Assembly (NCBI GenBank): GCA_003152995.1
Contig: PMBR01000131.1
Span: 40,865-93,333, forward strand
Origin: Chloroflexota bacterium
GTDB lineage: Bacteria > Chloroflexota > Limnocylindria > Limnocylindrales > CSP1-4
Length of the DNA stretch: 52,469 nt
Direction of reading: 5' to 3'
Position 1 is the first letter of the stretch, and each line of letters begins with the position of its first letter. The notes beneath the pieces were generated by a model that saw only the letters and a program-made list of their open reading frames with translations, was not told the origin of the DNA and searched no databases. The translations under genes were made by a program, and so were the position numbers. Below are positions 23,063 through 52,414 of this stretch, piece by piece.

Positions 23063-23221
23063 CTCACCCCGGCCGTCTATGCCCACGGCCTGGCACTGGC
23101 GTTGCCCGAAAATGTTGCAATGGCGCGCCCGACAAGTGATGGACACGCGTTTGCAACCGACCGCATCCCAATCGAGGGCCTTTGTGAGTGGCTGGCCGCG
23201 GCAACGGCCAGGTCGGCATGA
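23063..23221 (+). pseudogene. 3' remnant of a large serine recombinase (homolog of 52256..52414)
   Basis: LTPAVYAHGLALALPENVAMARPTSDGHAFATDRIPIEG..ARSA* vs LTPAAYAHGLALALPEIVAKARPTGVGHALATCRIPIKG..AKSA*. Confidence 0.9.
23114..23157. other. att-like junction (left), 44-bp quasi-palindrome
   Basis: GTTGCAATGGCGCGCCCGACA-AG-TGATGGACACGCGTTTGCAAC; TGGCGCGCCCGACA is the reverse complement of the tRNA-Arg(CCG)-type 3' end TGTCGGGCGCGCCA. Confidence 0.75.
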
Positions 23222-24450
23222 ACGCCCTCCGCATGCTCACCGTCGAGCAGATACCGATCGACCAGCTCCGGCCTGACCCGGCCAACCCCCGACGGATCGG
23301 CGACGAGGAACTCGAGTCGCTCACCCGCAGCCTGCGCCAGTTCGGCTTTGTCCAGCCGGTCCTCGCGCGCAAGGAAGACGGCACGGTCATCGGCGGCCAC
23401 CAGCGTCTCCTGGCCGCCAGACGCCTCGGACTCACCACCGTGCCAGTCACGTACCTCGACCTGAGCGTCGAACAGGCCCGCCTGCTCAACCTCGCCCTCA
23501 ACAAGATCTCGGGCTCCTGGGACGACCAGCTCCTGGCCCGGCTCCTGGCCGACCTGCAGGCCAGCCCGAACATCGACTTGACGCTCTCGGGGTTCGGCGA
23601 GGACGAGATCCGCGATCTGCTGCGGAGCCTGGAGACCCGCGAGAAGAAGGAGCGAGTCGAGGACTTCGACCTCGACTCCGCACTAGAGGACGCAACCCGG
23701 ACTCCGCGCTCCAAGCCCGGCGACCTCTGGGCCCTCGGCGAGCATCGGCTCCTGTGCGGGGACGCCACCAGGCCCGAGGACGTCGAGCGGGTGCTCGCCG
23801 GCAAGCAGGCCGCTATGGCCTTCACCGATCCGCCATACAACGTCAGCCTCGGCGACCACGGTGGCCAGCAGCGAGGAAGCAGGAAGCGTCGGATCGCCAA
23901 CGACTCCATGGACCCGATCGCCTGGGAAGTATTCGTCCGAGCCTGGGGACGAACCCTGCTCGCGGGCGTGGACGGCGCGATCTACGTCTGCATGAGCAGC
24001 AAGGAGATGCCGCTGGTCTCGCGGGTCCTCGCAGAGGAAGGCGGCCACTGGAGCGACACGATCATCTGGCACAAGGATCGCTTCGTCCTCGGTCGTGCTG
24101 ACTACCAGCGGGCATACGAACCGATCTGGTTCGGCTGGCGAGAAGGTGCAAGCCACCACTGGTGCGGAGATCGCGATCAGGACGACGTCTGGGAGATCAA
24201 TCGACCATCCGATGCACCGCTGCACCCGACGATGAAGCCGTTGCCGTTGATGGAGCGCGCGATTGCCAATAGCAGCAAAGCCGGCGACCTGGTGCTGGAC
24301 CTCTTCGCCGGCTCAGGCAGCACCCTCATCGCCTGCGAGCGGACCGGCCGGCGGTGTGCGGCCCTCGAACTAGATCCTCGCTATGTAGACGTAGTGCTGG
24401 CCCGCTTCGAGAGGTTCAGCGGCCAGACTGCGGAGCGGCTCGATGGCTAG
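23218..24450 (+). CDS. ParB/Srx N-terminal domain + N6/N4 DNA methyltransferase (beta class)
   Basis: LRPDPANPR..IGGHQRL; FTDPPY; HPTMKP; DLFAGSGST; ATGA coupling to the recombinase remnant. Confidence 0.92.
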   Translation: MNALRMLTVEQIPIDQLRPDPANPRRIGDEELESLTRSLRQFGFVQPVLARKEDGTVIGGHQRLLAARRLGLTTVPVTYLDLSVEQARLLNLALNKISGSWDDQLLARLLADLQASPNIDLTLSGFGEDEIRDLLRSLETREKKERVEDFDLDSALEDATRTPRSKPGDLWALGEHRLLCGDATRPEDVERVLAGKQAAMAFTDPPYNVSLGDHGGQQRGSRKRRIANDSMDPIAWEVFVRAWGRTLLAGVDGAIYVCMSSKEMPLVSRVLAEEGGHWSDTIIWHKDRFVLGRADYQRAYEPIWFGWREGASHHWCGDRDQDDVWEINRPSDAPLHPTMKPLPLMERAIANSSKAGDLVLDLFAGSGSTLIACERTGRRCAALELDPRYVDVVLARFERFSGQTAERLDG

Positions 24451-24844
24451 ACGAGTATCGCCACCCAAGCCGGCGTCGGGCGCCACCGTGGCTCGTGTGC
24501 GACGATCGAGATCCAAGTCGGCCAATCAGGCGACTCGCGCTCTGCTTGCGAGCGTGGACGCCCTTGGCGCCAAGGTTGCCCTCCAGGGCGCAGACCGCAA
24601 CGACACGACCGGCTGGGCGCTCCGCTACCTCGAGTCGAGCCGACCGACGAGCGTCCTAGCACCCGCTCCCCTGAGCGCGGAAGACAAGACCAAGATGGTC
24701 TATGTCCAGGCCGATCAGTTGGTGGGCGTGATCAGAGCCGTGCTGGAGGGGCTCAACCTGTCGGACGCCGACTACACCCGCGGCATCGACCTCGCGATCA
24801 AGGAGCTTCGGGCTGCCTCCTCGCAAGGCTGGGAGCCGCTGTGA
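24443..24844 (+). CDS. Hypothetical protein
   Basis: Start overlaps the MTase stop; typical codon bias. Confidence 0.7.
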   Translation: MARRVSPPKPASGATVARVRRSRSKSANQATRALLASVDALGAKVALQGADRNDTTGWALRYLESSRPTSVLAPAPLSAEDKTKMVYVQADQLVGVIRAVLEGLNLSDADYTRGIDLAIKELRAASSQGWEPL

Positions 24845-24920
24845 GCAGGCTTCCTCTCCCCTGTCAAATCCGACACTATGGCGAGATATCGGGCACTCGG
24901 CGGTATACCAGAGGTAAACG

Positions 24921-25340
24921 ATGGTAAACCGCGGCTGCACTTACGAGATGCTCGACGGCCTCCTGTGTCAGGCTCCAGCGCTGCGCGGCAAGGCGCTCTG
25001 CTACTGGCACGAACCCGACGCATCCGACGCGGCGCAGGAGGCTCGGCGGGTCGGAGGCCACCATCGGCGCAAGGCCCGAAGCGTCGCGACCATCTACGAC
25101 TTCGCAGGGTTGCGCACCGTCGAGAGCGCCCAGCGACTGCTGGAGACCGCGGCCATTGAGACGTTGGCCTTGGAGAACTCGATCCAGCGCAACCGCACCC
25201 TCATCAGCGCCGCAGCCGGTGCCGGCAAGCTCATCGAGGCAGGCGATCTAGCAGACCGACTGACCGCCGTTGAAGCCGCCGTTGGCCCCAAGGTCCATCC
25301 CGAAGGCGATGCCGCCTTCCCCGAGGAGCCAGCTCGATGA
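24921..25340 (+). CDS. Hypothetical protein with CCCH (HGGxSTG-like) Zn motif, terminase-small-subunit-like
   Basis: C-x9-C-x10-C-x2-H, ARRVGG, helical LADRLTAVE tail; RBS GAGG; function inferred from pattern and context. Confidence 0.55.
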   Translation: MVNRGCTYEMLDGLLCQAPALRGKALCYWHEPDASDAAQEARRVGGHHRRKARSVATIYDFAGLRTVESAQRLLETAAIETLALENSIQRNRTLISAAAGAGKLIEAGDLADRLTAVEAAVGPKVHPEGDAAFPEEPAR

Positions 25341-26122
25341 CCCTGAAGCGACGCCTCGACTCCCTTGAGACCTCACTGTCCCCCACCCAGCTTGTCCTGC
25401 GCTGGCTGGCCGAGGCTCATGCCTACGGCGACCTCGTCCCCTACTTGAACTCCCTCCTCGCCCAGGACCCGCCGGTGGCTCCTCTAGATCGTCTAGCCCG
25501 GGAGGCGGTCCAGGGGGCTAGGACTGCAATGCGCGGCAAGCGTCCCGAGCTTGTCGATGCCGCGGTCCGGAGCGCCCTGCGCGAGACCGTCTTTCGGTTC
25601 GAGCTGGTGATGCGCATCAACGTGACCGCGCACGAGTTGCTGGAGCGTGAGGCCTTGATCGATGCCGCCCTGTCAGCCAACCTCGCCCTGGCGTTCAAGG
25701 ACGATGACCAGCGGGCCGACCAGAGACGCCTGGAGCACCTGGCGACACTGCGCGATCTGATCTGCGTCCAGGTTGACGAGCTATTGGCCAGCGGGGAAGC
25801 GCGCACGCTTGCGGAGGGGCGCTACCTCGACGGCCATGGCGCGCTCTTCCCTGCCGTCGCAGCGGCCTGGGATGAGCAGGTCCACAGCACGCAGCTGATC
25901 GCGGCCCTGGCAGTCCGTATGGCCGAACTCGACGGCGCCCAGGCCGCTCCTACTCCGGACCCTGAGGTGCTGTCCCGGCGGACGACGGAACTTGTAGCCG
26001 ATCTCGTCGAACCTGCGAAGTCCGAGGCGCTCGACAAGCTCGGGGAGGGCCGGCGGTCGCTGGACATCGCCAACGCCTGGGTGCGGCGCAAGCTGCGCCA
26101 GGTTCCGCAGCCCGAGCCGTGA
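25337..26122 (+). CDS. Hypothetical helical protein
   Basis: ATGA-coupled; MTLKRRLDSLE N-terminus. Confidence 0.75.
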   Translation: MTLKRRLDSLETSLSPTQLVLRWLAEAHAYGDLVPYLNSLLAQDPPVAPLDRLAREAVQGARTAMRGKRPELVDAAVRSALRETVFRFELVMRINVTAHELLEREALIDAALSANLALAFKDDDQRADQRRLEHLATLRDLICVQVDELLASGEARTLAEGRYLDGHGALFPAVAAAWDEQVHSTQLIAALAVRMAELDGAQAAPTPDPEVLSRRTTELVADLVEPAKSEALDKLGEGRRSLDIANAWVRRKLRQVPQPEP

Positions 26123-26325
26123 ACGCCGTCACCATGGAACGATCGCCACACGGAAGAATGGGCAGATCGAGAGACCGGCAGTGGCACCTCTCATGGAGGC
26201 CGAGCCTAGCGTGTCCAGTCATCGCGTCGTCCCGTGGCCTTGCCAAGCGGCGATGGGAACTCCAGGCGGACAGCCGCGGGATTGATCGTGGTCACAATTC
26301 GGCCCGTGGCGAGCAAACTCCGGAA

Positions 26326-27591
26326 TTACGGCCAGTACAGATCAGCGGACACCGTTCCCAAACCCGAGTGGTAGACAACGAGGACGCGCCCGTCGGCCAA
26401 GAGGATCGCCGTCCCATACTCAGACCCGGCCGCCATCGGCCCGGTCGGTGCGAATCGACCGGTGGTTGGGTCGTACAGGTCCGCTGAAGCAATGGGGTCG
26501 CCATTCTCATCCGAACCGTCGGCGACGAGAACGCGGCCGTCGCGGAGCCGAGTGGCCGTGTGGCCTGTGCGAGGAACCGACATCGATCCGGTCTTTGTGA
26601 ACCTGCCGGTGGCCGGGTCGTACAGCTCCGCGGAAACAAGGAAGCCGCCATCCGCGTCGCGGCCGCCGGCGACAAGGACCTCGCCATTGATCAGAAGGGT
26701 CGCGCTCGCGCCGACGCGCGGGGTCGTCATGGACCCCGTGCGGGTCCACTTCCCGCTCGTGGGGTCGTACAGCTCAGCCGACGCGAAGACGTAGCCGCCG
26801 GCCTCGCCCCCATCGTCGCCGCCGGCGACGAGGACACGTCCGTCGCGAAGCAGCGTCGCCGTCTCGCCATGGCGCGCAGTCCTCATGGAGTCGGCCCGGG
26901 TGAACTTCCCCGTGGCCGGATCGTAGATGTCGGCCAACGGAGTGGCGCCACGAGGCAGAGCGTACCCACCCACGCAAAGCAGGCGCCCATCGGGCAGGAG
27001 AACGGCCGCGTCTGGTCTGTGAGACCCAGGTTCCGCAGCGGCGAGAGTGAACTCACCAGTCGAAGGGTCGTAGAGCTGCGCATTGAAATCGTTGAACGTC
27101 AGGACACGTCCATCTTGGAGCGCAATCGACAGGTTTGGACCGTAGGGCACGTCGTAGGGGAGCGGAGACCCGGTGCTCCGGAACTGCCCCGTGGCCGGGT
27201 CTAGCAGCGCCGCTGCGCCCTCGCCAATCACGATAACCTCGCCATCGTTAAGCAACGCGGCCGTATCCACGAGGTTGGGGAGGTCCGTCTGTCCAGAGGC
27301 GGTGAACGTGCCCGGCCTGCCGGTGGGTGTGGGCGTGCTTGAAGGTGCGACCACTGGTGTGGCCACGGGCGAGGGCAGCGACGGAAAGGGTGGACGCGCG
27401 GTCGGGCTCGCCAGAGGTTCAGGCGACAATGTCGGAACCGAGCCGTTGCAGCCGGCTACGACTATCGCAAGACAGAGGAGTGGCCCGGCGCCTCGGTTCG
27501 ATCCCACGTGCCTGAGTGACCGGCTGCGGCCGTCGTGTTGTCTCCCGCTCAATGCCAGCATGTTCGTCAAGGACGACCCCTCGCCTTCCAA
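26326..27591 (-). CDS. Kelch-repeat lipoprotein
   Basis: VAGC lipobox; repeats R.GHTAT.L.DGRVLVAGG..SAELYDP.TG.F; start uncertain. Confidence 0.88.
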   Translation of the reverse strand: MEGEGSSLTNMLALSGRQHDGRSRSLRHVGSNRGAGPLLCLAIVVAGCNGSVPTLSPEPLASPTARPPFPSLPSPVATPVVAPSSTPTPTGRPGTFTASGQTDLPNLVDTAALLNDGEVIVIGEGAAALLDPATGQFRSTGSPLPYDVPYGPNLSIALQDGRVLTFNDFNAQLYDPSTGEFTLAAAEPGSHRPDAAVLLPDGRLLCVGGYALPRGATPLADIYDPATGKFTRADSMRTARHGETATLLRDGRVLVAGGDDGGEAGGYVFASAELYDPTSGKWTRTGSMTTPRVGASATLLINGEVLVAGGRDADGGFLVSAELYDPATGRFTKTGSMSVPRTGHTATRLRDGRVLVADGSDENGDPIASADLYDPTTGRFAPTGPMAAGSEYGTAILLADGRVLVVYHSGLGTVSADLYWP

Positions 27592-27922
27592 GTGATCTCG
27601 GCCTACGAGTTCTGAACCGCCCTGGGTCCCGCGGAGCCTCTCGATCTTGAATCAGGCGGCGGCGGTTGCTTCTAGTTGACCACGATAGGCCTGCATGAAC
27701 TCGGCCGGAGCGACGTCTCCGTGGCGCCTCCGACACGATGACCTTCTTGTGGCCCCGCCCCCGATCGACCGATGTGCGGATCTCACCGGTTTTCGCCACC
27801 TGATTCCACGCGAATTCGCCGCGCGTTTTGCGGGTCTTGGCCGCGCGACTAAGGCCTGCACAACGATACCGTCTGGGTGGGGCCAGATCTGATGACGGTG
27901 GGGCCGAATTCCCATCGAGCGG

Positions 27923-28231
27923 CTAGCTTCGCCGATCGGGTGTCCGGGTCTCCCACTGGCACGAGCGTACAAGTGGGCCAGGCCTGACTACCCACAGGGC
28001 AAAGAGAGGCAATGTTCCGCTGTATGTCGCGAACAAGGTGACTGGGTGTCGGCGGGGCGTCTTTCTCCCCATGGGCTTGGGCTGCGCCGGGTCGTTGATA
28101 AAGAAGTCATTCCCGCTCAGGCCCGTGACCACGACGAAGTGCTGCTGGTTCTTGTTCAAGTAGAGCTTGGCGATCAGTGGGTAGCCCTGAGCTATCACCG
28201 CTCGAATGCTCGGTATGAGAGCCTGGACGTG
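27923..28231 (-). pseudogene. C39-like cysteine peptidase C-terminal fragment
   Basis: QGYPLIAK..QHFVVVTG..FFINDP (His/Asp part) present; no upstream catalytic Cys segment. Confidence 0.55.
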
Positions 28232-34405: not shown

Positions 34406-37400
34406 CTACCCCTCGTTTAGGTCCTCGTCCTCCACCGCGTCTTCAGATGCCGACGATCGAAGGTGGCCGATGAGCATGCGCATGTCGGCAAGCTCCGTCG
34501 ATGACAGACCCCAGTACGTCCCAGCCGCATTGTCGATGTCGGTAACCGCGCTGGCCAGAGCGACCGGATCAGCGGACCCAACAGCAAGATGGGCTTGCCT
34601 TGAACCGTCTGCCAAGGCGCGGTGCGCCGCATCGTTTGGGCGGAACTTGCTAATCCGGATTCGTTCAAAGAAGCCGCCGCTCCCGAAGCTCTTGCCGCCC
34701 CGGACGCTGCTGTAGGTTGCCAAGTAGTTGAGAGGGCTACTGTTCAGCAGGGCGCACAGGTAATGCGCTTCATCGGGCGTCTCCGTCGGGGCGAAGATGA
34801 CCGTGTTCTTCACCTGAGGTGGGCGCTTGCCCAGGAGCGGGTCGTCGACTGTCTCGACGACGGCGGCCCTGAACCCGCTCCCCATCGTCGCCCAGACGAC
34901 CCGGGCTGGCGCGAGGTTGTCGTTTCCGAAGTTGAAGACGGAGTAGAACGCATCAGAAGTCCGGCCCTTCTTCCGAGCGAAGTACCGCCGGAAGCCGCTG
35001 CGTTTCTCCAAGTCGGCGCGGAACTGGGACAGATAGTCGTACGTCCGCGGGTGAGTGACCTTCAACATCGACTCGGTGTAGCCGCGCCTCGTGACCGGGT
35101 CCTGTGGCACGAGGATGTGAGCACGGGGCGTCGCCGAAAACGGCTTGACGTCCCGCCAATCGATGAATGGGAAGATGAAGTCAGGCTCGATAGCCATCGG
35201 TCGCTCGGGCGGATGCTTCCCTTTCGCACGTGCCGCATCGTTGACGAAGGTGATCCGGCCGTCAGCAAGCCTCGGGCCGATGAAGCCGTAGTAGATGCCA
35301 TCGGCCCACGTTGTGATTCCCGCACGCGGCTCATACGGGCTCTTGCCCGTCATCCTCTGAGCGCCGGCTATCGACTCGACGGTCCCGATGACCCATGGCG
35401 AAGTCGGGTCTTTCGAATTACACGGCGCGGCCAGAAGCTCGTGCTGATGGGATGCCGCCAACGCGTCGGCCAGTTCAGCGTCTCGGGGGATAGCCCCGCC
35501 CCGGCGGGTCCAGAGCGTGTACGGGATCGGGTACTTTGGGGTGTGGCCGCGTTCCCCGATGAGTAGCCCACTCCAGTTGGACGCCCCTTCAAAGGGCTGA
35601 ATGGCAACCAGATCTGCAGCGGCAGTGGGACCGATTGGCGTTGTGTCGCTGAGCATGAAACGACGGAAGCCATCCGCGGCCGGGGAGTTCTGGAAGGTGG
35701 TCTGAGGGAATAGAAACGCGATGGTGCCGCCGTCCGCGAGGTAGTAATCGGCGCAGCAGTACCAGAAGAGCATCGCGATGTCCCGCTTCGAACCGCCCAG
35801 GATGGTATTGAAGCCGGTCAGTGTGAACAGGCCGTGGATCTCCCACAGCCGACGGGTCACCTTCCGATACTCATCGGAAACGGACTCCCAGTTGACCCAT
35901 GGCGGGTTACCGACGACGTAGTCGAATCTCCCGACGAGGGCTGGGGCGAAGGCGTTGCGAAGCAGGCGAGCCCAGATCTGGTTCTTGCCCTGCTCGTCCA
36001 GCTTCTGGACCTTGCGGAACAGCTGTTCGAGAAGACGGCGGGTGGAGGCGCTTGCCGTCTGTCGTCGACGCTCAACGCGTGCCACGAACTCAGCCGGCTC
36101 GATCTTCGATGCGATGCCCAGCTCCAGCTCCTCGGTCACCAGGCGCAGGCCCTCGGCGTCGGCGAGGTCGATGGGGTACTTGAAGTCGCCCTCCGAGCTT
36201 CCCCGGACAAGGTGGTCGCTCGTCGCCGTGGTGATCGAACTTGCGACGAGTCGACTGTACGGGAGCGGAGCGAGCAGCGAATCGGCGATGAAGACAGGCA
36301 GACTCAGCGGCGTCGCCTTCCTCAGAAGGGGCCCCAGGGCTAGCAGGTAGTTGGTCCGGGCGGCGAGGACTGCGACAGGGTTCAGGTCGAAGCCGACGAC
36401 GTTTCTCAGGATGGCCCTGGCGGTTTCCTCGTCGGTCGCGAGGTTTGCGACCGCGCGCTTGCGAATTCGGGTGATCGCCCGCACTAAGAACGTGCCGCTA
36501 CCGCAGGCTGGATCGAGGAACCGCGCAGTGAGGTCGCCGTCATACCCGGCCTGGTCCAGCGTGTAGTCGGCGAGCCAATCTGGCGTGTAGTACTCGCCCA
36601 GGTCGTGGCGGACTTTCTTGGGAACGAGGTACTGGTAGAGCTCCTTGAGGAGATCGCGAACGGACTCAGGGTCCAGAGTGCTCGTGGCCGGCTCGAATTG
36701 CGTGAGTCCCTCGGCCAGGCGCTGCACGAGCTCCGCGGTGTTGGAGTCCCAGGTTTCCAGGTACCACCCGAAGTAGTCCGCTTCCAGGAAGTTCTCAATC
36801 CCGTGGGCGGCGAACAGCCGGCCTGCCTCGAGGTCGGCAAGGATTCGAGCGCGATCTGAGGGCCCGGCGTTGGCGATCTTGGAGGCCTCAGATGAAATCA
36901 GTGATCCCGCCTGGAGCGACAACACTTCGACTGCAAGCAGCTTCATGAGCAGGGCGTAGTACGTCTGCACCGTGAACAGGAGCCTCGGCAGGCCCGTACT
37001 TGGTGGAACGCCGTACAGCTTTGCCAGGAGCCCCGCATCCCGACGTGCTTTGGTGGTGTCCTGCTCATACACCGCGCCGAAGGAGCGTATCCACTCGGCG
37101 TAGAGCAGCTGGGCCTTCGGTGGAGCCGCTGGGTCTGCGAGACGAGAAAGTAGGTGGGTGACGAAGTCACAGGCCAGCGGTGAGCCAGCCGCTTCGGGAC
37201 CAAACGCGTCGGCTAGGGATCGTCCGTCAAGTCGTTTCCTCCCGAGCGCCCGTAGGTACAGCAGGAGTTGGCTGACCGAGCCCGTGTTCAGTGGATATGG
37301 CCCCTCCAGCGGAATCAGGACTTCGAGTTGGCCCAGGAGTGGGCCCGCTCCCAAGGGTCCAGTGGCCCGCAGGAAACCGATCTGCCGTCCGTCGAAGACG

Positions 37401-37759
37401 ATGCCCGCGTGACGCCGCAGAGCGTCAAGCTCGTGGGGCCTCGAGACAGAGGCCGACAGCAGCATGTACTCCCGGGCCTGCTTGGCCGCGTGGGCAAGGC
37501 CGCCGGCGGTAGATAGGCCGCCTGGCGGCTCGTACTCAATCACTAGGGCGCCGTACATCGTGTCAGCTCGGCCTCGGAGCGTAACAACGCTGTTCCTGGC
37601 GTCTAGGGTCTTCTCTCGTTCCGGGTCGGTCGCTACTCCCAGGCCAACACGAGCCATGTCGATAAGGGGCTCGATCCGGATGCGGAGATCGGTTTCATTG
37701 GCTGAAGCGGCCGCTTGGGCCTGCAGGTCAGCAGTTAGTGCCGCGATGTCGACCGACAT
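34406..37759 (-). CDS. Type IIG (Eco57I-like) restriction-modification / N6-adenine methyltransferase fusion
   Basis: N-terminal GRADTMYG..IEYE nuclease-like motif; LGEYYTP; FLDPACGSGTF; VGNPPW; C-terminal TRD (YLCALLNS). Confidence 0.9.
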   Translation of the reverse strand: MSVDIAALTADLQAQAAASANETDLRIRIEPLIDMARVGLGVATDPEREKTLDARNSVVTLRGRADTMYGALVIEYEPPGGLSTAGGLAHAAKQAREYMLLSASVSRPHELDALRRHAGIVFDGRQIGFLRATGPLGAGPLLGQLEVLIPLEGPYPLNTGSVSQLLLYLRALGRKRLDGRSLADAFGPEAAGSPLACDFVTHLLSRLADPAAPPKAQLLYAEWIRSFGAVYEQDTTKARRDAGLLAKLYGVPPSTGLPRLLFTVQTYYALLMKLLAVEVLSLQAGSLISSEASKIANAGPSDRARILADLEAGRLFAAHGIENFLEADYFGWYLETWDSNTAELVQRLAEGLTQFEPATSTLDPESVRDLLKELYQYLVPKKVRHDLGEYYTPDWLADYTLDQAGYDGDLTARFLDPACGSGTFLVRAITRIRKRAVANLATDEETARAILRNVVGFDLNPVAVLAARTNYLLALGPLLRKATPLSLPVFIADSLLAPLPYSRLVASSITTATSDHLVRGSSEGDFKYPIDLADAEGLRLVTEELELGIASKIEPAEFVARVERRRQTASASTRRLLEQLFRKVQKLDEQGKNQIWARLLRNAFAPALVGRFDYVVGNPPWVNWESVSDEYRKVTRRLWEIHGLFTLTGFNTILGGSKRDIAMLFWYCCADYYLADGGTIAFLFPQTTFQNSPAADGFRRFMLSDTTPIGPTAAADLVAIQPFEGASNWSGLLIGERGHTPKYPIPYTLWTRRGGAIPRDAELADALAASHQHELLAAPCNSKDPTSPWVIGTVESIAGAQRMTGKSPYEPRAGITTWADGIYYGFIGPRLADGRITFVNDAARAKGKHPPERPMAIEPDFIFPFIDWRDVKPFSATPRAHILVPQDPVTRRGYTESMLKVTHPRTYDYLSQFRADLEKRSGFRRYFARKKGRTSDAFYSVFNFGNDNLAPARVVWATMGSGFRAAVVETVDDPLLGKRPPQVKNTVIFAPTETPDEAHYLCALLNSSPLNYLATYSSVRGGKSFGSGGFFERIRISKFRPNDAAHRALADGSRQAHLAVGSADPVALASAVTDIDNAAGTYWGLSSTELADMRMLIGHLRSSASEDAVEDEDLNEG

Positions 37760-38066
37760 CTGGCTTCCCCCTTGGGTAGTGTCTTGCGGTGAGCGGCCTA
37801 CCACGTCTCTTGCCGCTGTCACGAGACTAGATCAAGGCGGAGTTCCACGTATGCCATGATTGCTAGGGTCGCCTCGCCAGCATTCACGATGCGAACATCG
37901 TGGTGCAATATGGCCAGTGGGGCGACGGCCGTCACGCGCCAATGTCTAGATAATCCCTCGCCCGGCGCTGCTACTCGCTCGCTTGCAACCGTGTCGCGCA
38001 GGTGCCACCCTCGCCCGTGTCGGAGGGCATAGAGTCCGCCCGCTGGCACCCAAGGAGGCGGCAAAG

Positions 38067-41648: not shown

Positions 41649-41868
41649 CAGTGGCGGAGGCGCCGTATGGGCGGCGACCTATGTAGGCTCGGCAGCACAT
41701 TGCTCACACGTCCCTAGCCCTACTTCGCGCAGGGTGTTGTTGCTAGAGCGTCTCAAGCCCGTCGGCCGATCCGGATCTGGGGCCCAGCGCCATTTGGTCA
41801 TAGCGTTGCTATCCGAGCGCGCCTGAGTGATGGATGTGGGCGTCCATCCCGCACCCGAGGCGCCCACG

Positions 41869-42804
41869 ATGACCGCTCAACCCCTCCCCGCCCTGACCAG
41901 CGGAGACCCCTCCGCCTGGGACCAGGCCCTCTACGCCTTCTTGATAGAGAAGGGCAACCGCTCGGGATCGAAGCGGACCGTCGAGTCATACAGCCGGATG
42001 CTCTGGCCCTTCTTCGCTGAGCGCAGCAAGACACCCGACCGAGTCAAGCCAGCTGATGTGCTGGCCTGGGTCCACGGCATCGGCAAGTCAGGCCGGACTC
42101 CTTCGGCGACCACGGTCGGTGCCAGGATCGCGTGTCTGTCCTCCTTCTACCGCTTCCTGATCCGGATGGGCTTGGTCGTCTCCAACCCCTGCGATGCCGT
42201 CGAGCGGCCCAGAGCGGTCCAGTCAGTCGCTCGGGGATACAGCGCCGACGAAGTCCGGCGATTGCTGGTGGTCGTCCCTGACACCGTCGCCGGCCGGCGG
42301 GACCGGGCGATCCTGCTGACCCTCGTCCTCACCGGGCGGCGTCGGGCCGAGGTGATCGGCCTGCGCGCAGGCGACCTGAGCCCCGAGGGCGAAACGGTCT
42401 TCTACGCCTATCGCGGCAAGGGCGGCAAGAGAGGACGACGAGAACTACCCCGACCTGCCTACGAGGCCATCTGCGCGACCCTGGCCGACGCCGGCAAGGA
42501 GCTGGCGACCATGGCTCCTGCCGAGTCGCTCTGGCAGGCTGCCGCTCGACCCGAGGGAGTCACGAGTGGGACGTTCTACGCTCGCTTCCGTCGGTACCTG
42601 GCGGCGGCTGGCATGGCGCCGACCGGCATCCATGTCTTGCGCCATACCGCGGCAAAGCTCCGGAGGGATGCTGGCGAGTCGATCGAGTCGGTCAGCCAGT
42701 TCTTGGACCACTCGAGCCTCGCGGTTACGAGCGTCTACTTGCGCCGACTCGAGGGTCAGGAGGACCTGACTTGGCGCGAGGTCGCCCAAGCTATCGGGGT
42801 CTAG
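41869..42804 (+). CDS. Tyrosine recombinase (Xer-like)
   Basis: SAM-like N-domain; LTGRRRAE (R), GKGGK (K), HVLRH, LDHSS, TSVY. Confidence 0.93.
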   Translation: MTAQPLPALTSGDPSAWDQALYAFLIEKGNRSGSKRTVESYSRMLWPFFAERSKTPDRVKPADVLAWVHGIGKSGRTPSATTVGARIACLSSFYRFLIRMGLVVSNPCDAVERPRAVQSVARGYSADEVRRLLVVVPDTVAGRRDRAILLTLVLTGRRRAEVIGLRAGDLSPEGETVFYAYRGKGGKRGRRELPRPAYEAICATLADAGKELATMAPAESLWQAAARPEGVTSGTFYARFRRYLAAAGMAPTGIHVLRHTAAKLRRDAGESIESVSQFLDHSSLAVTSVYLRRLEGQEDLTWREVAQAIGV

Positions 42805-44274: not shown

Positions 44275-45306
44275 CTAGAAATGGTCGAAGACATCCCTGA
44301 GCGTGACCGCCAGCCGAGTCGTCTCCACTCGAGCCCGGCACATCCTCGCAACTCGCCGCTTGGCGCCGCTGGCGCAACGGACCTCGATGTCAACGTGTCG
44401 CGCGTCCTTGGGAAGCACGCAAACGTCGTGAGGAAGCCCGCTCAGCCTGCTCGTTTCTACCCAACAGCGATCATGACCGGGGTGTGGCCGGTGCTGCCGC
44501 CAGACCCTGCTTACCACACCGCTTCGCCCCAACTCGGCATGCATTTCGCGCCAGGTCGAGTAGCGGCTCGCTGGATCCAATGCCATTGCTTTCTCCACAC
44601 GCTCGGCGAGACGCCGAGACACGTGCGGAGCCACATCACGCAGTCTGGTGTAGTCCCCTGCCTGCACCAGCGCGCTTATCTCTTCTCTTGTTGTGGCGTC
44701 GAAGGGCCATTTACCGATGAGGAGCCGATAGGTGCTTACGCCCATCGAGTAGATATCCGAGGCAACCGAGCCTCGTCCCGTCGCCCACATCTCTGGCGCA
44801 ATGGTGTGTGGGCTACCTTCGGCTGGCGATGTGCCGTCGAGGTCGAGCTGATATGCCAGGCCGAAATCGCCGAGGAGCGCAAACTCAGGAGTATCCAGGA
44901 AGATGTTGGCCGGCTTGATGTCGCGATGAACAAGCCGGCGGTCGTGGCACGCACCGAGGCCGACCAGTGCCTGTCGCATCCAACTGACAACTGTGTCGGC
45001 CGGTAGGCCAAGAGGGTTGACCGCGACGAATGCCTCGGCGGTGCCCATGCCTGCGATGCGGGTCGCAATGTATGGGATGTCGCCGAATGTATCGGCGTTG
45101 TAGACGCGCAGGATACTCGGACCCTCCAGCGCCGTCAGGACCGTGGCTTCCCCGTAGGCGTGGATCGTCGATAATCCGGGTCTGAACAGTTTGAGCGCGA
45201 CGAGTTGGTTCTGATGGGTGTCATTGGCCTTCCAGACGTCGGCTGAGGCGCCCTCACCCAGCTGGTCGAGGATCTCGTAGCGGTTCGCGAAAGTAGTTCC
45301 GATCAC
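44275..45306 (-). CDS. Hanks-type Ser/Thr protein kinase with a short unknown C-terminal domain
   Basis: GTG 45306 MIGTTFANRYEIL; LGEGASA, VALK, HRDIKPAN, DFG, APE, SDIYSMG; no TM. Confidence 0.93.
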   Translation of the reverse strand: MIGTTFANRYEILDQLGEGASADVWKANDTHQNQLVALKLFRPGLSTIHAYGEATVLTALEGPSILRVYNADTFGDIPYIATRIAGMGTAEAFVAVNPLGLPADTVVSWMRQALVGLGACHDRRLVHRDIKPANIFLDTPEFALLGDFGLAYQLDLDGTSPAEGSPHTIAPEMWATGRGSVASDIYSMGVSTYRLLIGKWPFDATTREEISALVQAGDYTRLRDVAPHVSRRLAERVEKAMALDPASRYSTWREMHAELGRSGVVSRVWRQHRPHPGHDRCWVETSRLSGLPHDVCVLPKDARHVDIEVRCASGAKRRVARMCRARVETTRLAVTLRDVFDHF

Positions 45307-45329
45307 GAGCAAGAGTGTAGGAGGGTGAC

Positions 45330-45788
45330 GTGACGGTCTGGGGGGTGGCGGCGCGAATAGAGCGCGGAAACCCAGTCGTCTTCGGCGTCGAGCTATCGGG
45401 GTCCCGGGCCGCCCCCGTCGGACGGCAAGTCTTCTTGCATCGCTGTGAGTCGACTGATATGGCCCGGGCGCTGATGCTCCTCGCGAACGATCTCGAGCAG
45501 GAGCTCGCCAAGAAGCCTCCGACGGTGTTCGTCGTGCGATCGATGGATTGGTTTCGTACTCCACACGAGAAACCCACCAGGGCTCGCCTCCAAGTCGAGG
45601 GAGTCCTGCTGGCAGTCGCACGGGAGGCGGTCCCGACCGTGGCCGCCTACTCCGGCAAAGAGATCGGCAAGCTCTGTGGCTGCACGAAGTCGGACATCGA
45701 GGCGGAGGCCACCCGCGTTCTACCAGATCTCGACCAAGACGCGGCAATGGCCGGGCTCGGCGCATTGGTCCTCGCCGAGCAAGGTTGA
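45330..45788 (+). CDS. RuvC/RNase H-fold protein, predicted catalytically inactive
   Basis: By-eye colinear alignment with RuvC: VWGVAA~ILGIDP, PTVFVVR~PDYFAIE, EGVLLAVA..VAAYSGKEI~RGVAIVAA..VFEYAARQV, DAAMA~DAADA. Confidence 0.6.
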   Translation: MTVWGVAARIERGNPVVFGVELSGSRAAPVGRQVFLHRCESTDMARALMLLANDLEQELAKKPPTVFVVRSMDWFRTPHEKPTRARLQVEGVLLAVAREAVPTVAAYSGKEIGKLCGCTKSDIEAEATRVLPDLDQDAAMAGLGALVLAEQG

Positions 45789-45795
45789 TCGTCCG

Positions 45796-46293: not shown

Positions 46294-46314
46294 AGGTCTA
46301 TCGTAGTCCTGGCC

Positions 46315-47948: not shown

Positions 47949-48065
47949 GATGCTTGACCTCGGCTAGGCGTCATCGCCAGATCGGGGATTGCAGGTGACA
48001 CATGGCCCCTATATAGTATCCGTGGCGTCAGCAGCAGTTGCTGTGGACGCGATGACAGGTAGAGG

Positions 48066-48290
48066 ATGCCACAGGTGGCGACGCAAAGAAAGCCCGTGGA
48101 CGCGGTGGATGGGACCAACCGCCCTCTGCTCCGTATCGAGCAGATTGCCGAGCGATTATCCATCAGCCGATCGATGGCCTGGAAGATCATCTCGACTGGT
48201 CAGCTGCGTTCTTTACGGATCGGCAGGGTAGTGCGCGTCCGGTCCGAGGACCTCGACGCCTACCTAGCTGACCCAGCTCGCCAGCGATGA
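48066..48290 (+). CDS. HTH_17 / excisionase-family DNA-binding protein
   Basis: LLRIEQIAERLSISRSMAWKIISTGQLRSLRIGRVVRVRSEDLDAYL. Confidence 0.9.
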   Translation: MPQVATQRKPVDAVDGTNRPLLRIEQIAERLSISRSMAWKIISTGQLRSLRIGRVVRVRSEDLDAYLADPARQR

Positions 48291-50545
48291 ACTCGCCGTG
48301 CGCCCTTCTTCAGGGCGCTCTGGGAATGGCAGCCGCCGGCTGGGCGGTGCTCCCGTTGCACACGCCGATCGGCGGCAGCTGCGATTGCCGTCGTCCCGAT
48401 TGCCCCTCGCCCGGTAAGCACCCGCGGACCAAGAACGGCCTTCTCGACGCGAGCACCGACCCCGACCAGATCCGACGCTGGTGGGGCATGTGGCCCGACG
48501 CGAACGTGGGGATCGCGGTCCCGTTGGGCACCGTCGCGGTCGACATCGACGGGCCGGAAGGCGTGGATGCCCTCCAAGCCCGTGGCTACGCCCTACCCGA
48601 GACCGCCACGGTCGAAACTGGCCGTGGCCACCACTACCTATACCGGACGACCGAGCCGATCGGACCCAAAACCGCTGTCCTACCCAAGGTCGACCTCCGC
48701 GGCCTCGGCAGCTATCTCGTCGCACCACCCTCGCTGCACCACGGTGGGCGCCGGTACCGCTGGCTTCGCGAGCCCGAGGATGGCATCGCCGAGGCACCTG
48801 CCTGGATCAGCGATATCGTGGGGAGTGGTCGGGGACTCGACAGCCCCATGCCTTCGATCCCCGATGTGATCGTCGAGGGCCAGCGCAACGCCACTCTGAC
48901 CTCACTGGCGGGCTCGATACGCCGACGTGGGGCGCCGACGCCGGTCATCGTCGCTGCGCTCCTCGAGGCCAACCGTCTGCAATGCCGGCCACCACTGGAC
49001 GAGGACGAGGTTCGGGCGATCGCGGCCTCGATCGGGCGCAAGCCGCCAGGCGAGGGCTTCCGGGTTAGGGCGAGCCTGGCCGGGGAATTCCGCGAAATGG
49101 AAGACGCGACGCCTGGTGCTGCAGACGAACCGATGGAAGCGGCCGCCGATCAGGTCGACCATCTGAGCCGTCAATCGCTCGCGGCCTACCATTTCGCCGA
49201 CCGGAGAGGCGCCGAGGTCCGGTTCGACCACGGCCGACGCGTCTGGCTCATCTGGCATGGCCATCGCTGGCAACCGGATCGGGACCAGGAGATCCGCAGG
49301 CTGTGGCTCAAGGCCCTGGGCGATCGATTCCTCGAAGCACTGCGGATCACCGATAGCGAGATGCGGGAGCGGACGATCGGCGCGATCATGGCCGCGGGCG
49401 CCACGGACGACGCGATCGCGGCGGGTCTGCGGATCACGGCGTCGATGAAGCCCGTGGCCACGAGCGGTGACGCCTGGGACCCGGACCCCTGGCTCCTCGG
49501 CTGCGAGAACGGCCTGGTCGACCTTCGGACCGGCGCGTTGCGGGTGGGACGTCCCGCGGACATGGTCAGTCGCTCCACCCGACTCGACTACGACCCGCGG
49601 GCAACGTGTCCACGCTGGGATCGGTTCCTCACAGAGGTGTTCGCCACCGACGAAGATCTCATTAGCTGGTTCGCGCGCCTCATCGGTGCATCGCTCGTCG
49701 GCACCTCCAAGGAGCTACTCGCGGTCCACTACGGCTCGGGCAACAACGGCAAGTCCGTGGCATTCCGAACCCTCGGTCGCGAGGTGGCGGGCGACTACAG
49801 CGTCGAGGTCGCGGTCGAGACCCTGCTCAACGCCAACCGGGCAGCCGGTGCCCCCACCTCCGATCTGATGCGCCTGCGAGGGGCACGCCTGGCCTTCACA
49901 AGCGAACCCGAGCAGGGCGCTAAGTTCAAGGGCGGCACGCTCAAGCGCCTCGCGACGATCGATCTCATGACCGGCCGCGAGCTCCACGGGCGGCAGGAGG
50001 AGTGGCCCCCGACTCATACCCTCCATCTGGCCACCAACCACCTGCCCGCGGCCGACGACGCGTCCGAGGGGTTCTGGCGGAGGATCGCCCTAATCCCCTG
50101 GGCGGTCCGGTTCGCCAAACGCGGCGAGGAAGGCGATGGGCCGGCCGAAGACCCTGGGCTGGCGGCCATCCTCGCTGGAGAGGCCCGCGGCATCCTCGCC
50201 TGGGCGGTCAGAGGCGCCGTGGCCTATGCGACCGCTGGGACGCTCCACCCCTTCCCAGCAGCGGTCGCCCGCGAGACGGCCGCCTATCGCGAGGACGAGG
50301 ACCCCCTGGGAGGTTTCCTGCGCGAGTGGGTCACGGCCCAGGCGGATGCCTCCACGCCCGGACCCAAGGTCTACGAGCAGTACGTGGCCTGGGCCGATTC
50401 GATCGGGTCCAAGGCCATGACCGCGCCGGTCTTTGGCCGAGCGTTCACCGAGCGCTACGACGGGCTCGGCTTCCCCGTCCGTCGCCGCAAGGTCCACGGC
50501 AGCCCCGTTTACGAGGGACTCGTCGTCGTGAGGCCCTGCCCGTGA
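48287..50545 (+). CDS. Bifunctional primase/polymerase + PriCT + D5_N + SF3 (P4-type) helicase
   Basis: GWAVLPL..GKHP, VDIDG, GHHYLY, YLVAPPS; EGQRNATL; ENGLVDL; GSGNNGKS; ATNHLP..FWRRI. Confidence 0.95.
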   Translation: MNSPCALLQGALGMAAAGWAVLPLHTPIGGSCDCRRPDCPSPGKHPRTKNGLLDASTDPDQIRRWWGMWPDANVGIAVPLGTVAVDIDGPEGVDALQARGYALPETATVETGRGHHYLYRTTEPIGPKTAVLPKVDLRGLGSYLVAPPSLHHGGRRYRWLREPEDGIAEAPAWISDIVGSGRGLDSPMPSIPDVIVEGQRNATLTSLAGSIRRRGAPTPVIVAALLEANRLQCRPPLDEDEVRAIAASIGRKPPGEGFRVRASLAGEFREMEDATPGAADEPMEAAADQVDHLSRQSLAAYHFADRRGAEVRFDHGRRVWLIWHGHRWQPDRDQEIRRLWLKALGDRFLEALRITDSEMRERTIGAIMAAGATDDAIAAGLRITASMKPVATSGDAWDPDPWLLGCENGLVDLRTGALRVGRPADMVSRSTRLDYDPRATCPRWDRFLTEVFATDEDLISWFARLIGASLVGTSKELLAVHYGSGNNGKSVAFRTLGREVAGDYSVEVAVETLLNANRAAGAPTSDLMRLRGARLAFTSEPEQGAKFKGGTLKRLATIDLMTGRELHGRQEEWPPTHTLHLATNHLPAADDASEGFWRRIALIPWAVRFAKRGEEGDGPAEDPGLAAILAGEARGILAWAVRGAVAYATAGTLHPFPAAVARETAAYREDEDPLGGFLREWVTAQADASTPGPKVYEQYVAWADSIGSKAMTAPVFGRAFTERYDGLGFPVRRRKVHGSPVYEGLVVVRPCP

Positions 50546-50552
50546 GCGCCAA

Positions 50553-50652
50553 GGGGGGAGCAGGGGGAGCATTTTGCCGATTCTCAGGTTCGCTCCTCGC
50601 GTGTATTAGGAGGAGACCTAGAAACGGCGGTTTTGCTCACCCTGCTCACCCC
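50553..50652. promoter_or_regulatory. Putative replication origin (inverted iterons)
   Basis: GGGGGAGCA x2 facing TGCTCACCC x2 around an imperfect inverted repeat, immediately after the primase stop. Confidence 0.65.
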
Positions 50653-50699
50653 GGAGCCGCGATGGCTGACGCGGTCTTCGCGATGGCTGGGGGCCTCGA

Positions 50700-50879
50700 A
50701 TGAACGCCCCCGTCCAACCGCCCGTCGCTCGCGACCCCTTGATCGCGGCCCTGGCCCGCTATGTCGAAGCGCTCCACGCCCGCTATCCCGACGGTCCTGA
50801 CCAGATGCGCAAGGAGAACCTTGACGCCAGAGGGAACATGCCTCGGATGTGCAAGAACAGCGGTGGCAGGGCGGCATGA
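50700..50879 (+). CDS. 59-aa protein coupled to the serine recombinase
   Basis: Below cutoff: MNAPVQPPVARDPLIAALARYVEALHARYPDG..GGRAA*; ATGA overlap at 50876-50879. Confidence 0.65.
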   Translation: MNAPVQPPVARDPLIAALARYVEALHARYPDGPDQMRKENLDARGNMPRMCKNSGGRAA

Positions 50880-52414
50880 AGCGGCTGCCCCGCTCTCTCG
50901 ACGACATCGGCGGTCTACGGGTGGCCCGCTGGATACGAGAGTCCACCAAGGGGCAATACGACCGCTTCGGTCCAGCGAGTCAGCGCGAGCAGCAGGATCG
51001 CTTCATCGAACGCTATGGCCTCATCGACACGGGACTGACCTTTCAGGTGGCCCAAAGCGGCACCACGGTCTGGCGCTCGGCGGTGATGACCCAGATGCTC
51101 GCCGAGGCCAAGGCAGGCGCCTTCGATCTCCTCCTGGCGGGCTACTCGGACCGCTGGCAGCGCAACCTGCGCCGAACTCTCGAACTCCTCGAAGACAACC
51201 TCCATCCGGCTGGCGTCGCGCTGGTGATGTGCGACCGGCGGATCATCAGCTCCGATCCCCACGACTGGGACGAACTCGTGGCGGAGTCGGCGGGAGCCGA
51301 GAAGTACAGCCGTCGGCTCTCGGAACGGATCACCGAGGGGTACGCCGCCAAGTTTGCCCAGGAGAACGATCCGGGCGGCCATGCCGGCCTTGGGTTCCGA
51401 CGCTCTCCCGAGCCTCCGAATGTGCTCCAGATCGATCCGGCGACCATCGGCACAGCTGTCAGCCTATTCGAGCGTTATGCCCTGGGCACCCTGAGCGCCC
51501 AGCAGCTCGCCGCCGAGACTGGCCTTGAAGCAACTCGCATCCGCGCCATCCTCATGAACCCGATCTACAACGGCTGGATACGCCGACACCGTGGGCCCAA
51601 CGAGACCCGCCGCCCCGCGCCATGGCGTTCGAACCCACCGGTCTCCGACGAGCTTTGGGCGCGAGTTGAGGATGTCCGGCAGACCAAGTGCCGAGGCAGC
51701 GGTCCGCGCCGCAATGATCGAGTCGATCTGCTCGGTGGCTTGCTCTACTGCGTCTGCGGCAAACCCATCAGGAGCGACGGATGGGCCGCTAACAGACGGT
51801 ATCGCAAGCTCCATACCAAGCCGTGCCAGGAATGGGGTGCCGCAGCTCGAATTCCGGCCGAGGCCTGGGAGGAGCCTATCCTCGCGCAGGTCGGCGGGAT
51901 CACGCTCGACGACGGGGTCATCGCCAGAGTCGTGGCCGCCCTAGGCTCGACGGTCCGTCCCGTCGCCATCGACCGGACTCGGATCGAGCGCCAGATGCGC
52001 GAGCTTGCCCTCGAACACGTCGGAGGCGGGATCAGCGACGAGACGTACCTGGAGCGTCTCAAGCACCTCCGAGCGTCTCTGGCGGAGGCTGAGGAGCACG
52101 CACAGGTCGGAGTCCCGGCCGATCGGGCCGTGGAGTGGCTGCGAGCCCTTGCGGAGACCTGGCAGCAAGCGGACGTCCCAGAAGCAAGGAGCGAACTACT
52201 CCACGCCATCTACGAGCGCATCGTCATAGCTGGGAGGGAATTCGTGTCAGCCCGCCTCACCCCAGCCGCCTACGCCCACGGTCTGGCGCTGGCGCTGCCC
52301 GAAATTGTTGCTAAAGCGCGCCCGACAGGTGTTGGACACGCGTTAGCAACCTGCCGAATTCCGATCAAGGGTCGCGATGAGTGGGTGGCTGCGGCGGAGG
52401 CCAAGTCAGCATGA
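50876..52414 (+). CDS. Large serine recombinase (integrase)
   Basis: WIRESTKGQ catalytic Ser, SDRWQRN, ILMNPIYNG recombinase domain, LLGGLLYCVCG Zn ribbon, coiled coil. Confidence 0.95.
   Translation: MKRLPRSLDDIGGLRVARWIRESTKGQYDRFGPASQREQQDRFIERYGLIDTGLTFQVAQSGTTVWRSAVMTQMLAEAKAGAFDLLLAGYSDRWQRNLRRTLELLEDNLHPAGVALVMCDRRIISSDPHDWDELVAESAGAEKYSRRLSERITEGYAAKFAQENDPGGHAGLGFRRSPEPPNVLQIDPATIGTAVSLFERYALGTLSAQQLAAETGLEATRIRAILMNPIYNGWIRRHRGPNETRRPAPWRSNPPVSDELWARVEDVRQTKCRGSGPRRNDRVDLLGGLLYCVCGKPIRSDGWAANRRYRKLHTKPCQEWGAAARIPAEAWEEPILAQVGGITLDDGVIARVVAALGSTVRPVAIDRTRIERQMRELALEHVGGGISDETYLERLKHLRASLAEAEEHAQVGVPADRAVEWLRALAETWQQADVPEARSELLHAIYERIVIAGREFVSARLTPAAYAHGLALALPEIVAKARPTGVGHALATCRIPIKGRDEWVAAAEAKSA
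52307..52350. other. att-like junction (right), inside the integrase CDS
   Basis: GTTGCTAAAGCGCGCCCGACA-GG-TGTTGGACACGCGTTAGCAAC; 17 of 21 arm positions are Watson-Crick complementary. Confidence 0.8.

Follow-up and report, generated by a model that had tools for sequence, protein, structure and literature searches.

The closest described parallel to the system reported here is provided by the ssrA islands of Dehalococcoides, which stand in tandem and are bounded by copies of the 3' end of ssrA (available text of PMC3146451). According to the same text, the 3' end of the gene for DsiB, a serine integrase of about 540 amino acids (aa), 'always' overlaps the attachment (att) site and stops within ssrA or in the next island, and it is already stated there as a possibility that a complete integrase exists only in the circular form or where another island adjoins. 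The ssrA module, as that text describes it, comprises a ParB-domain gene, a Mom-like DNA-modification gene and a primase-like gene of about 700 aa. Here we analyse a stretch of 52,469 nucleotides (nt) from the same phylum, the Chloroflexota (the window, by which we mean the whole stretch of DNA analysed); related contigs are labelled Limnocylindria/Limnocylindrales. It corresponds to C48:40865-93333, in contig C48 of genome G000, a 3.05-Mb metagenome-assembled genome (MAG) of 140 contigs that is 73% complete, and it is very probably part of a tandem array of islands at a tRNA-Arg(CCG) gene, with a serine integrase gene that harbours attP within its 3' end.

Canonical large serine integrases (LSIs) generally have attP outside the integrase gene and attB in protein-coding genes. 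Mycobacteriophages of the BPs type, which use a tyrosine integrase, have attP inside the repressor gene, and integration alters the C-terminus of the product and hence its stability or activity. Mx8 integrates at a tRNA-Asp gene. Its IntP has attP within the integrase coding sequence, and integration gives a new 3' end and changed behaviour (available text of PMC4383910 and PMC6070905). An attP inside the int open reading frame (ORF) and a 3' end replaced on integration are also features of the family described here; IntP nevertheless belongs to an unrelated enzyme family, since PMC4383910, in its available text, lists it among integrases, a term kept for tyrosine recombinases, and it differs from the serine integrase here in chemistry and site architecture. 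The SSV-type archaeal integrases also carry the recombination site inside the integrase ORF (PMC7253208 and PMC4383910, available text); these are tyrosine recombinases in which integration splits the gene in two, in contrast to the short tail swap considered here. As of 2015, serine integrases were not known to target tRNA genes, as stated in the available text of PMC4383910. In later literature we found no report of a tRNA-targeting serine integrase, and for serine integrases with attP inside the gene nothing beyond the work cited here, although the supplementary tables of TIGER/Islander and integrase-mining papers may list such sites; the available part of one preprint mentions, without att detail, that a minority of the tRNA-associated 'tycheposon-like' elements of marine cyanobacteria carry a large serine recombinase.

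An earlier note on this DNA, made from the sequence alone, had described two homologous 44-bp quasi-palindromes 29,193 bp apart, and both were recovered (site L, 23114-23157; site R, 52307-52350), with 78% identity between 23063-23285 and 52256-52469, that is, over both flanks of the palindrome. At site R, which falls in the terminal codons of an intact gene for a large serine integrase, a repeat search gives two arms of 21 nt (52307-52327 and 52330-52350) that are 81% complementary around a 2-nt spacer, GG (52328-52329). It is the sole place in the 52-kb window with at least 17 of 21 complementary bases around a 2-nt spacer, and no such site occurs in 20 Markov-1 random windows; the format, 2 x 21 nt around a central dinucleotide, is that of LSI sites (about 40-50 bp). 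The repeat search gives site L arms of 17 nt with 76% complementarity, or 15 of 21 when scored with the geometry of site R. The centre is GG in every other junction examined and AG at site L alone; site L is probably dead, and its AG centre would no longer allow recombination with GG sites. Given this centre, element 1 would not be expected to excise by itself. The ARPT peptide that the note read in the integrase frame at both sites is indeed present at both, but at site L the frame is a 45-codon remnant and not a gene.

As the note had also claimed, the reverse complement of the left arm aligns to the 3' end of tRNA-Arg(CCG), an annotated E. coli tRNA-Arg included. Site L retains the complement of CCA (the P arm, within 23063-23134, holds the tRNA-Arg 3' end and CCA in complement), and site R holds the acceptor and T-stem part without CCA. 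Taken alone this match is weak, because its GC-rich 11-mer core is common in the genome (a 15-mer has 62 matches at up to two mismatches); it is the relatives that render it significant.

Relatives were collected as 55 loci from a scan of one genome per species among Limnocylindria MAGs; some counts, namely the tallies of homologues and neighbouring genes, cover 57 related loci. Most alignments of the relatives end at about residue 495 of 521, which is the palindrome, and ARAGORN finds the minus-strand tRNA-Arg expected at the end of the array in 38 of the 55 loci, at the integrase end or close to it (35 CCG, 2 TCG and 1 TCT). The tRNA overlaps the end of the integrase match by about 20 nt in nearly all of these 38; in the exceptions (L027, L031, L036, L050 and L051) an insertion sequence (IS), a further island or a deletion lies between the tRNA and the matched integrase. 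On the tRNA side the integrase frame continues through the antisense tRNA, reading ...LPE(K/Q)VAM-ARPTGFEPATFGSGGRRSI(R/H) followed by a stop, and tRNA-proximal integrases end in ARPTGFEP..., exactly as predicted. Among 37 tRNA-side junctions caught by their sequence pattern, 33 enter the tRNA with 20 or more integrase codons in frame, and in 16 the uninterrupted run reaches at least 480 codons; the four that lose the frame are L027 (flank of an IS), L028 (a stop one codon upstream), L036 (a deletion) and L051 (a 10-codon remnant). Shorter integrase frames are not read as decay, because many of the MAGs may carry assembly frameshifts.

The breakpoints of homology were predicted to fall at the centre of the palindrome, and this is where they lie: the similarity of tRNA-side relatives to the window breaks directly after GG. 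Six such relatives are identical to the window at 95-113 of 120 nt left of GG (79-94%) and at 20-22 of 60 nt to its right (about 35%); four array-internal relatives are identical at 44-52 of 60 nt right of GG. The last 14-17 nt of the tRNA are rebuilt from integrase codons, with or without CCA, and the crossover point within this 14-17 bp block of attP/attB identity would be fixed by the symmetry of the site. Paralogues show the same frame over tRNA-Arg(TCG), tRNA-Arg(TCT) and tRNA-Pro(CGG), and ARAGORN detects no tmRNA in any locus. A tRNA-Glu beside family member L101 was considered as a target and dropped, as there is no read-through in an integrase-like frame.

The window genome encodes a second integrase of the family, 38% identical, at C103:39827-41298, where the contig breaks off within the final codons of the gene, at the complement of the 3' end of a further tRNA. 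From its resemblance to L107 this tRNA may be taken as tRNA-Pro, of which the CGG isoacceptor is not in the assembly. The same contig has a tyrosine recombinase fragment resembling 22621-23062.

Two C-terminal isoforms of the integrase are found among the 120 database proteins closest to it: 65 end in the antisense tRNA-Arg(CCG) tail and 17 fit the pattern of the tail encoded from the P' arm. Another 11 have ARPT with other endings, five of them (P0060, P0063, P0103, P0105 and P0122) reading ARPTVS..., and 27 have no ARPT, many of these ending in other '...GFEP...' peptides that represent readings of the antisense tRNA T-loop. A profile of the integrase family matches 7 of 151 Chloroflexota genomes (E <= 1e-25), all in the class of the window: its own genome, two of the three sampled in its family and four of the ten in a second family of the class. 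No other Chloroflexota family in this sample has a match at that threshold, which in a sample is no proof of absence. The tRNA-Arg(CCG) itself is present in 121 of 121 genomes tallied (one of them, G082, flagged as unpublished). We surveyed 30 tRNA-Arg(CCG) loci family-wide, 27 of them with a usable left flank, scoring by tblastn or by eye; the flank is an integrase or integrase fragment by tblastn in 16, a remnant of the last codons by eye in five more, an IS end in two and unrelated sequence in four. Genome G080 was considered as an empty site and rejected, as an IS end adjoins its tRNA.

Internal junctions, with an integrase-type left arm, a shared core through GG and a right arm that is not tRNA, number 20 in 15 sources, the window's two included. 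Tandem accretion is common in this integrase family, because several loci (L021, L038, L048, L050, L031 and L060) hold two or three such junctions ahead of the tRNA. At internal junctions the tail past the crossover belongs to the next element, as proposed before. The window itself holds the remnant of an older island (element 0), one complete island (element 1) and the start of a third (element 2), in support of the tandem array claimed in the earlier note, although its left 'element' is a remnant of about 0.5 kb with AG at the junction centre. This remnant consists of a truncated tyrosine recombinase (partial Pfam Phage_integrase match, E 4.9e-6) and, joined to it through a deletion, the final codons of a serine integrase. 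If islands accrete in the usual way at a target that is rebuilt each time, the one closest to the tRNA would be the youngest.

The tRNA had been placed beyond the right edge of the window, and relatives and synteny point there too, although the tRNA is not in this assembly. In the same-genus genome G080, the DNA 5' of tRNA-Arg matches contig C132 of the window genome, and the conserved backbone 3' of tRNA-Arg corresponds to C48:460-10209, oriented as it should be for a tRNA located past the right end of C48. With the backbone at these positions, at least 83 kb of C48, including the left 22 kb of the window, are non-syntenic and lie between the backbone and the tRNA side.

The integrase matches Pfam Resolvase (PF00239) at residues 28-172 (E 5.1e-11; 43.3 bits, cut-off 23.3), and its match to Pfam Recombinase is below the cut-off (17.7 vs 21.1 bits). 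Its longest open frame begins at 50849; database homologues begin at MKRLPRS, which corresponds to the ATG at 50876. Sequence searches of the PDB with the single protein and with a 16-sequence profile gave no match. An AlphaFold2 (AF2) model built with 37 homologues (mean predicted local distance difference test, pLDDT, 79) has catalytic, recombinase and zinc-ribbon-like domains and a long coiled coil, and the top Foldseek matches are full-length att-bound LSI structures from cryo-electron microscopy (9dxf, 9dxh, phiC31 9tep and Bxb1 9iu2; E 2e-15 to 1e-12), with alignments spanning about 500-520 columns. The model thus predicts the full LSI domain layout of recombinase domain, zinc ribbon and coiled coil. 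The att-overlapping gene is that of a serine, not a tyrosine, recombinase, and this serine integrase would catalyse the recombination events.

Branching after GG is also seen in assembled unitigs from metagenomes. The region 50849-52469 is found in peat and permafrost metagenomes of 14 studies. Run X1 has a 1751-nt contig that is identical to the window and terminates exactly at 52329; two short contigs start with the shared bases 52300-52329, after which one enters the right arm of the window and the other continues with six letters that differ. One contig each from runs X2 and X6, which belong to different studies, passes 52329 into the tRNA sequence ATTCGAACCTGC, and tail variants part at 52351-52352, the outer edge of the palindrome. 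These branches fit alternative partners joined at GG in natural populations.

A plausible mechanism can be proposed. The attP would be a quasi-palindrome of about 44 bp, in which the P arm consists of integrase codons ~486-494 together with an antisense copy of the last 14-17 nt of the tRNA, the centre is GG, and the P' arm with about 25 further codons completes the integrase, whose stop overlaps the first gene of the island. As the flank past CCA is unconserved among four unoccupied-looking sites, attB would comprise the 3' ~40 nt of the tRNA, with GG opposite tRNA positions 61-62 in the T-stem. The integrase would cut both sites at GG and swap the halves. On integration the P arm would rebuild the tRNA, the integrase would then read antisense through it, as ...ARPTGFEPATFGSGGRRSI(R/H) and a stop, and the displaced P' tail and first gene would end up at the far end of the island. 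The rebuilt tRNA with its integrase arm would be reusable as a target, and the P' arm of the next island to enter would restore a full tail to the older integrase, which is the state seen at site R.

The tail past the crossover is conserved. At internal junctions it reads GVG(H/R)A..TY.IPIEGRDEWLAAA...A, for example IPIEGRDEW..., and an (I/V)PIEG-like motif is kept in 15 of 20, even where the right arm differs markedly. Codon-position entropies of 0.28, 0.22 and 0.88 over 12 junctions indicate protein-level selection in this frame, the third position being by far the most variable. In 10 of 14 junctions the TGA that ends the tail shares bases with the start codon of the gene that follows, in the form (A/G)TGA. 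Because stops and starts overlap at both ends of the integrase gene, the circular form would carry an operon running from a 59-aa ORF through the integrase and across attP into the first gene, an operon that integration would cut. The gene that follows the tail codes for a ParB-methyltransferase in L006 and the window; elsewhere its product is a small protein of ~82-109 aa. In the AF2 model of the P'-tail form, residues 491-498, encoded by the att core, have pLDDT below 50, and residues 501-520 form a strand and a helix (pLDDT 87 and 77); in that of an antisense-tRNA-tail form, a 500-aa relative, the last 20 residues have pLDDT 26-29 and no secondary structure. This contrast between a predicted folded and a predicted disordered tail is only a hint, as the models differ in mean pLDDT (79 vs 69).

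What the tail swap means is put forward more tentatively. It is possible, though short of likely, that the exchange of ~28 residues is a built-in state switch of tRNA-targeting serine integrases, and the case for a real functional difference between the two isoforms seems to us evenly balanced. In such a switch the enzyme made from the circle would be complete, its C-terminal module (IPIEGRDEW plus helix) folded and its translation coupled to that of the first gene; a freshly integrated copy would have the disordered antisense-tRNA tail and altered activity, directionality or stability; and a newcomer island would re-arm the older integrase through the donated tail. If true, this would constitute a directionality or copy-control device for serine integrases without a separate factor. 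The swap could instead be without regulatory meaning, the frame simply continuing over att to the next stop and the isoforms behaving alike. Integrases with the antisense-tRNA tail are the majority (65/120), 16 of 37 junctions retain at least 480 uninterrupted codons, these integrases would need to be active for any excision, and the overlapping part of DsiB was judged divergent and unlikely to be functional (available text of PMC3146451). However, the part past the crossover is conserved as protein (third-position entropy 0.88 vs 0.28 and 0.22), the (I/V)PIEG motif persists where the P' arm differs, the tail is predicted to fold, and its stop is coupled to the next start; on balance we consider a tail without meaning rather unlikely.

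One may also ask whether there is an array at all. Site L could be a stray duplicated fragment from an unrelated rearrangement and the window a single island: what adjoins it on the left is no more than ~70 nt of integrase plus ~440 nt of tyrosine recombinase, the 22 kb further left look ordinary (with genes for Nramp, amino-acid permease, TetR, cupin and hybrid histidine kinase among others), and no further att remnant that would mark the left limit of the array was detected on contig C48. Yet site L is complete from P through the centre to P' and leads into the first gene of the island, the ParB-methyltransferase start after site R is different (78% identical), arrays with two or three junctions occur in the six loci named above, and the non-syntenic DNA extends over at least 83 kb. 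Moreover, three genes of this left part were compared with four genomes of the same genus, where the hybrid kinase and Nramp have distant matches only and TetR has a close orthologue in one; this left DNA may consist of old, decayed islands. A single island with a stray fragment is improbable on this evidence.

That the tyrosine recombinase of element 1 is the true tRNA-targeting integrase, and the serine recombinase has another role, would agree with the known tRNA-gene integrases being tyrosine integrases (available text of PMC4383910), with an intact copy in element 1 and a second in the remnant at 22621-23062, and with an identity block of 14-17 bp that would suit a tyrosine enzyme too, but it is very hard to sustain when just 15 of 57 loci have a homologue of it while every intact tRNA-side junction is overlapped by the serine integrase, when the tyrosine recombinase lies 9.5 kb from the junction, when the quasi-palindrome of 2 x 21 nt around 2 bp has the serine-integrase format and when the serine integrase's own codons vary with the tRNA targeted.

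Several observations weigh against a tandem array of islands at tRNA-Arg(CCG) built by this serine integrase, or against a role for its tail. ARAGORN finds no tRNA in the window and no tRNA-Arg(CCG) anywhere in the 73%-complete assembly, and the T-arm 15-mer of this tRNA was not found in the genome; with the tRNA missing and C48 ending 399 nt past the right edge of the window, the end of the array is unseen here. The island left of site L survives as a remnant only, and the site has the AG centre. No set of near-identical genomes supplied empty attB, attL and attR together, and the left flanks of four candidate B-P' junctions (L038, L044, L060 and L021) have no match in the sequences compared. 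No circular form or free attP was detected, the two matches in a viral collection being linear fragments. The loose ends in the metagenomes are short (12 nt), derive from unitigs and may stem from related strains. As for the tail, the two AF2 models are unequal in overall quality, and the conserved tail is dispensable for keeping the gene, because tRNA-tail integrases are abundant and many look intact.

Set beside the ssrA islands, the array at tRNA-Arg(CCG) shares the phylum, the tandem arrangement at a small stable-RNA gene and an integrase 3' end lying over att. The likeness to Dehalococcoides drawn in the earlier note therefore holds and was if anything understated, given that the 3' end of DsiB always overlaps att in the account of PMC3146451; our comparison is with the available description in that paper rather than with an aligned DsiB sequence. 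The module is similar as well, with a ParB_N and N6_N4_Mtase fusion and a 752-aa Prim-Pol/D5 protein here, although this methylase family differs from the Mom homologue described there. The target is tmRNA (ssrA) in Dehalococcoides and tRNA-Arg (CCG, TCG or TCT) or tRNA-Pro(CGG) here. DsiA, a second small serine recombinase, belongs to the described Dehalococcoides module, whereas a second Resolvase-domain gene was found neither among the element 1 ORFs scanned (some small ORFs being unscanned) nor in a genome search with the integrase as query. The Dehalococcoides module genes all lie on one side of att as described, whereas the operon here spans attP into the first gene, and the overlapping C-terminal part, described as divergent and probably non-functional in DsiB, is conserved and predicted to be folded here. 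With the canonical LSIs (phiC31, Bxb1, the Listeria phage integrase 4kis and 9dxf/9dxh) the integrase shares a predicted fold that matches over the full length and short quasi-palindromic sites with a central dinucleotide, but no PDB match at the sequence level, even by profile. The constant tyrosine integrase of a classical tRNA island of the Islander type is not found here (15/57 loci).

Other features of the window are collected in Table 1. The stop of the element 1 tail (23219-23221) overlaps the ATG of its first gene (23218-23220). The small HTH_17 protein, whose gene end overlaps the start of the Prim-Pol/D5 gene, is a candidate regulator or directionality factor, and the 59-aa ORF, kept at the same position in 36 of 57 loci and without a Pfam family, is a candidate accessory or directionality factor. 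The cargo of element 1 (type IIG-like restriction-modification protein, kinase and Kelch-repeat protein) is possibly a defence-type load, as in other islands. Of element 2 the window holds the first 140 nt; its ParB-methylase is 78% identical to that of element 1, and because the start of this gene after site R differs, element 2 is not a repeat of element 1. Searches of PHROGs and Pfam gave no virion genes among the element 1 ORFs scanned, and a phage identity for element 1 was set aside as unsupported; two relatives do occur in IMG/VR. One viral contig, L061, was considered as a circle and rejected, having no terminal repeat and a record classed as linear and 46% complete.

Table 1. Features of the window (positions counted from its first nucleotide; P and P' are the two arms of attP)
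Feature	Position	Strand	Remarks
Element 0 remnant: N-terminal half of a tyrosine recombinase, broken mid-gene at 23062	22621-23062	+	79% identical to 41989-42430 of the intact element 1 gene
Element 0: 3' end of serine integrase, ~24 last codons (...LTPAVYAHGLALALPENVAMARPT)	23063-23134	+	abrupt homology start at 23063
Site L	23114-23157	.	junction P(element 0) x P'(element 1); centre 23135-23136 is AG, not GG
Element 1, complete island, 29,193 bp	23137-52329	+	bounded by the two crossover centres
P' arm of element 1 and tail-coding stretch (...DGHAFATDRIPIEGLCEWLAAATARSA, then stop)	23137-23221	+	without intact integrase upstream
First gene of element 1: fusion of ParB-N and N6/N4 DNA methyltransferase (MTase)	23218-24450	+	Pfam ParB_N E 1.8e-11, N6_N4_Mtase E 1.3e-24
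Kelch-repeat protein (cargo)	26326-27591		
Type IIG-like restriction-modification protein (cargo)	34406-37822	-	Eco57I / N6_Mtase / MmeI_Mtase domains
Intact tyrosine recombinase, not att-linked	41827-42804	+	Pfam Phage_integrase E 1.2e-16
Ser/Thr protein kinase (cargo)	44275-45765	-	Pfam Pkinase E 2.4e-33; PHROG match
Small HTH_17 protein, excisionase-type helix-turn-helix, upstream of primase	48066-48290	+	Pfam E 2e-10
Prim-Pol / PriCT / D5_N primase-helicase, 752 aa	48287-50545	+	homologues in 11/57 loci
59-aa ORF directly upstream of integrase	50700-50879	+	stop overlaps integrase ATG (ATGA)
Large serine integrase	50876-52414	+	512 aa from ATG 50876; last 28 codons past crossover
Site R	52307-52350	.	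junction P(element 1) x P'(element 2); 44-bp quasi-palindrome
Element 2 start: P' arm, tail codons (VGHALATCRIPIKGRDEWVAAAEAKSA, then stop), ParB-MTase gene from ATG 52411	52330-52469	+	runs off the window

In many relatives (L021, L048, L050, L038 and L062) the first gene after attP encodes a protein of ~82-109 aa that starts M(R/K)DGY(L/R)RG...DVLAAYVA.GGS and looks like a helix-turn-helix regulator; here too the gene begins within the stop of the integrase. Far to the left in the window there are internally repetitive genes at 1302-4017 and 5826-6600, and two paralogous segments of ~1.4 kb that are 82% identical (6823-8259 and 8747-10158).

The att core is also occupied by an IS. In L027 (4957-6270) an element of ~1.3 kb with an rve/rve_3 (DDE) transposase and terminal inverted repeats of ~27 bp lies exactly in the att core beside tRNA-Arg(CCG), flanked on each side by an identical 16-base sequence, namely the tRNA 3' end through CAG. 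The right end of the IS adjoins the tRNA also in L063 and L071 (G080:C1, next to 27904) and is present in a peat unitig of run X1 at window position 52316. The IS looks to have a strong preference for this site, and its insertion in the att core accounts for the integrases ending in ARPTVS... (5 of the 120 proteins; for example ARPTVSEFTT and a stop).

A serine integrase that overlaps att and tandem islands at ssrA are already known from Dehalococcoides, as is an attP inside int in tyrosine enzymes; what looks new is that a family of serine integrases targets tRNA genes and that its tail past the crossover is conserved and apparently folded. Serine integrases are valued for genome engineering, in which short sites suffice, and how their direction is controlled is a key issue. 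In the present case the highly conserved 3' half of tRNA genes serves as attB for an entire family that counts hundreds of database proteins, and the att sites (Arg-CCG, Arg-TCG, Arg-TCT and Pro-CGG) can be read from the integrase gene's own end. With attP inside the frame, every integration would rewrite the C-terminus of the enzyme, which offers a natural pair of isoforms for comparing activity and direction. The principle of the ssrA islands is thereby extended to another class of Chloroflexota, one that is frequent in peat and soil and in which large accessory regions seem to be built up from such arrays.

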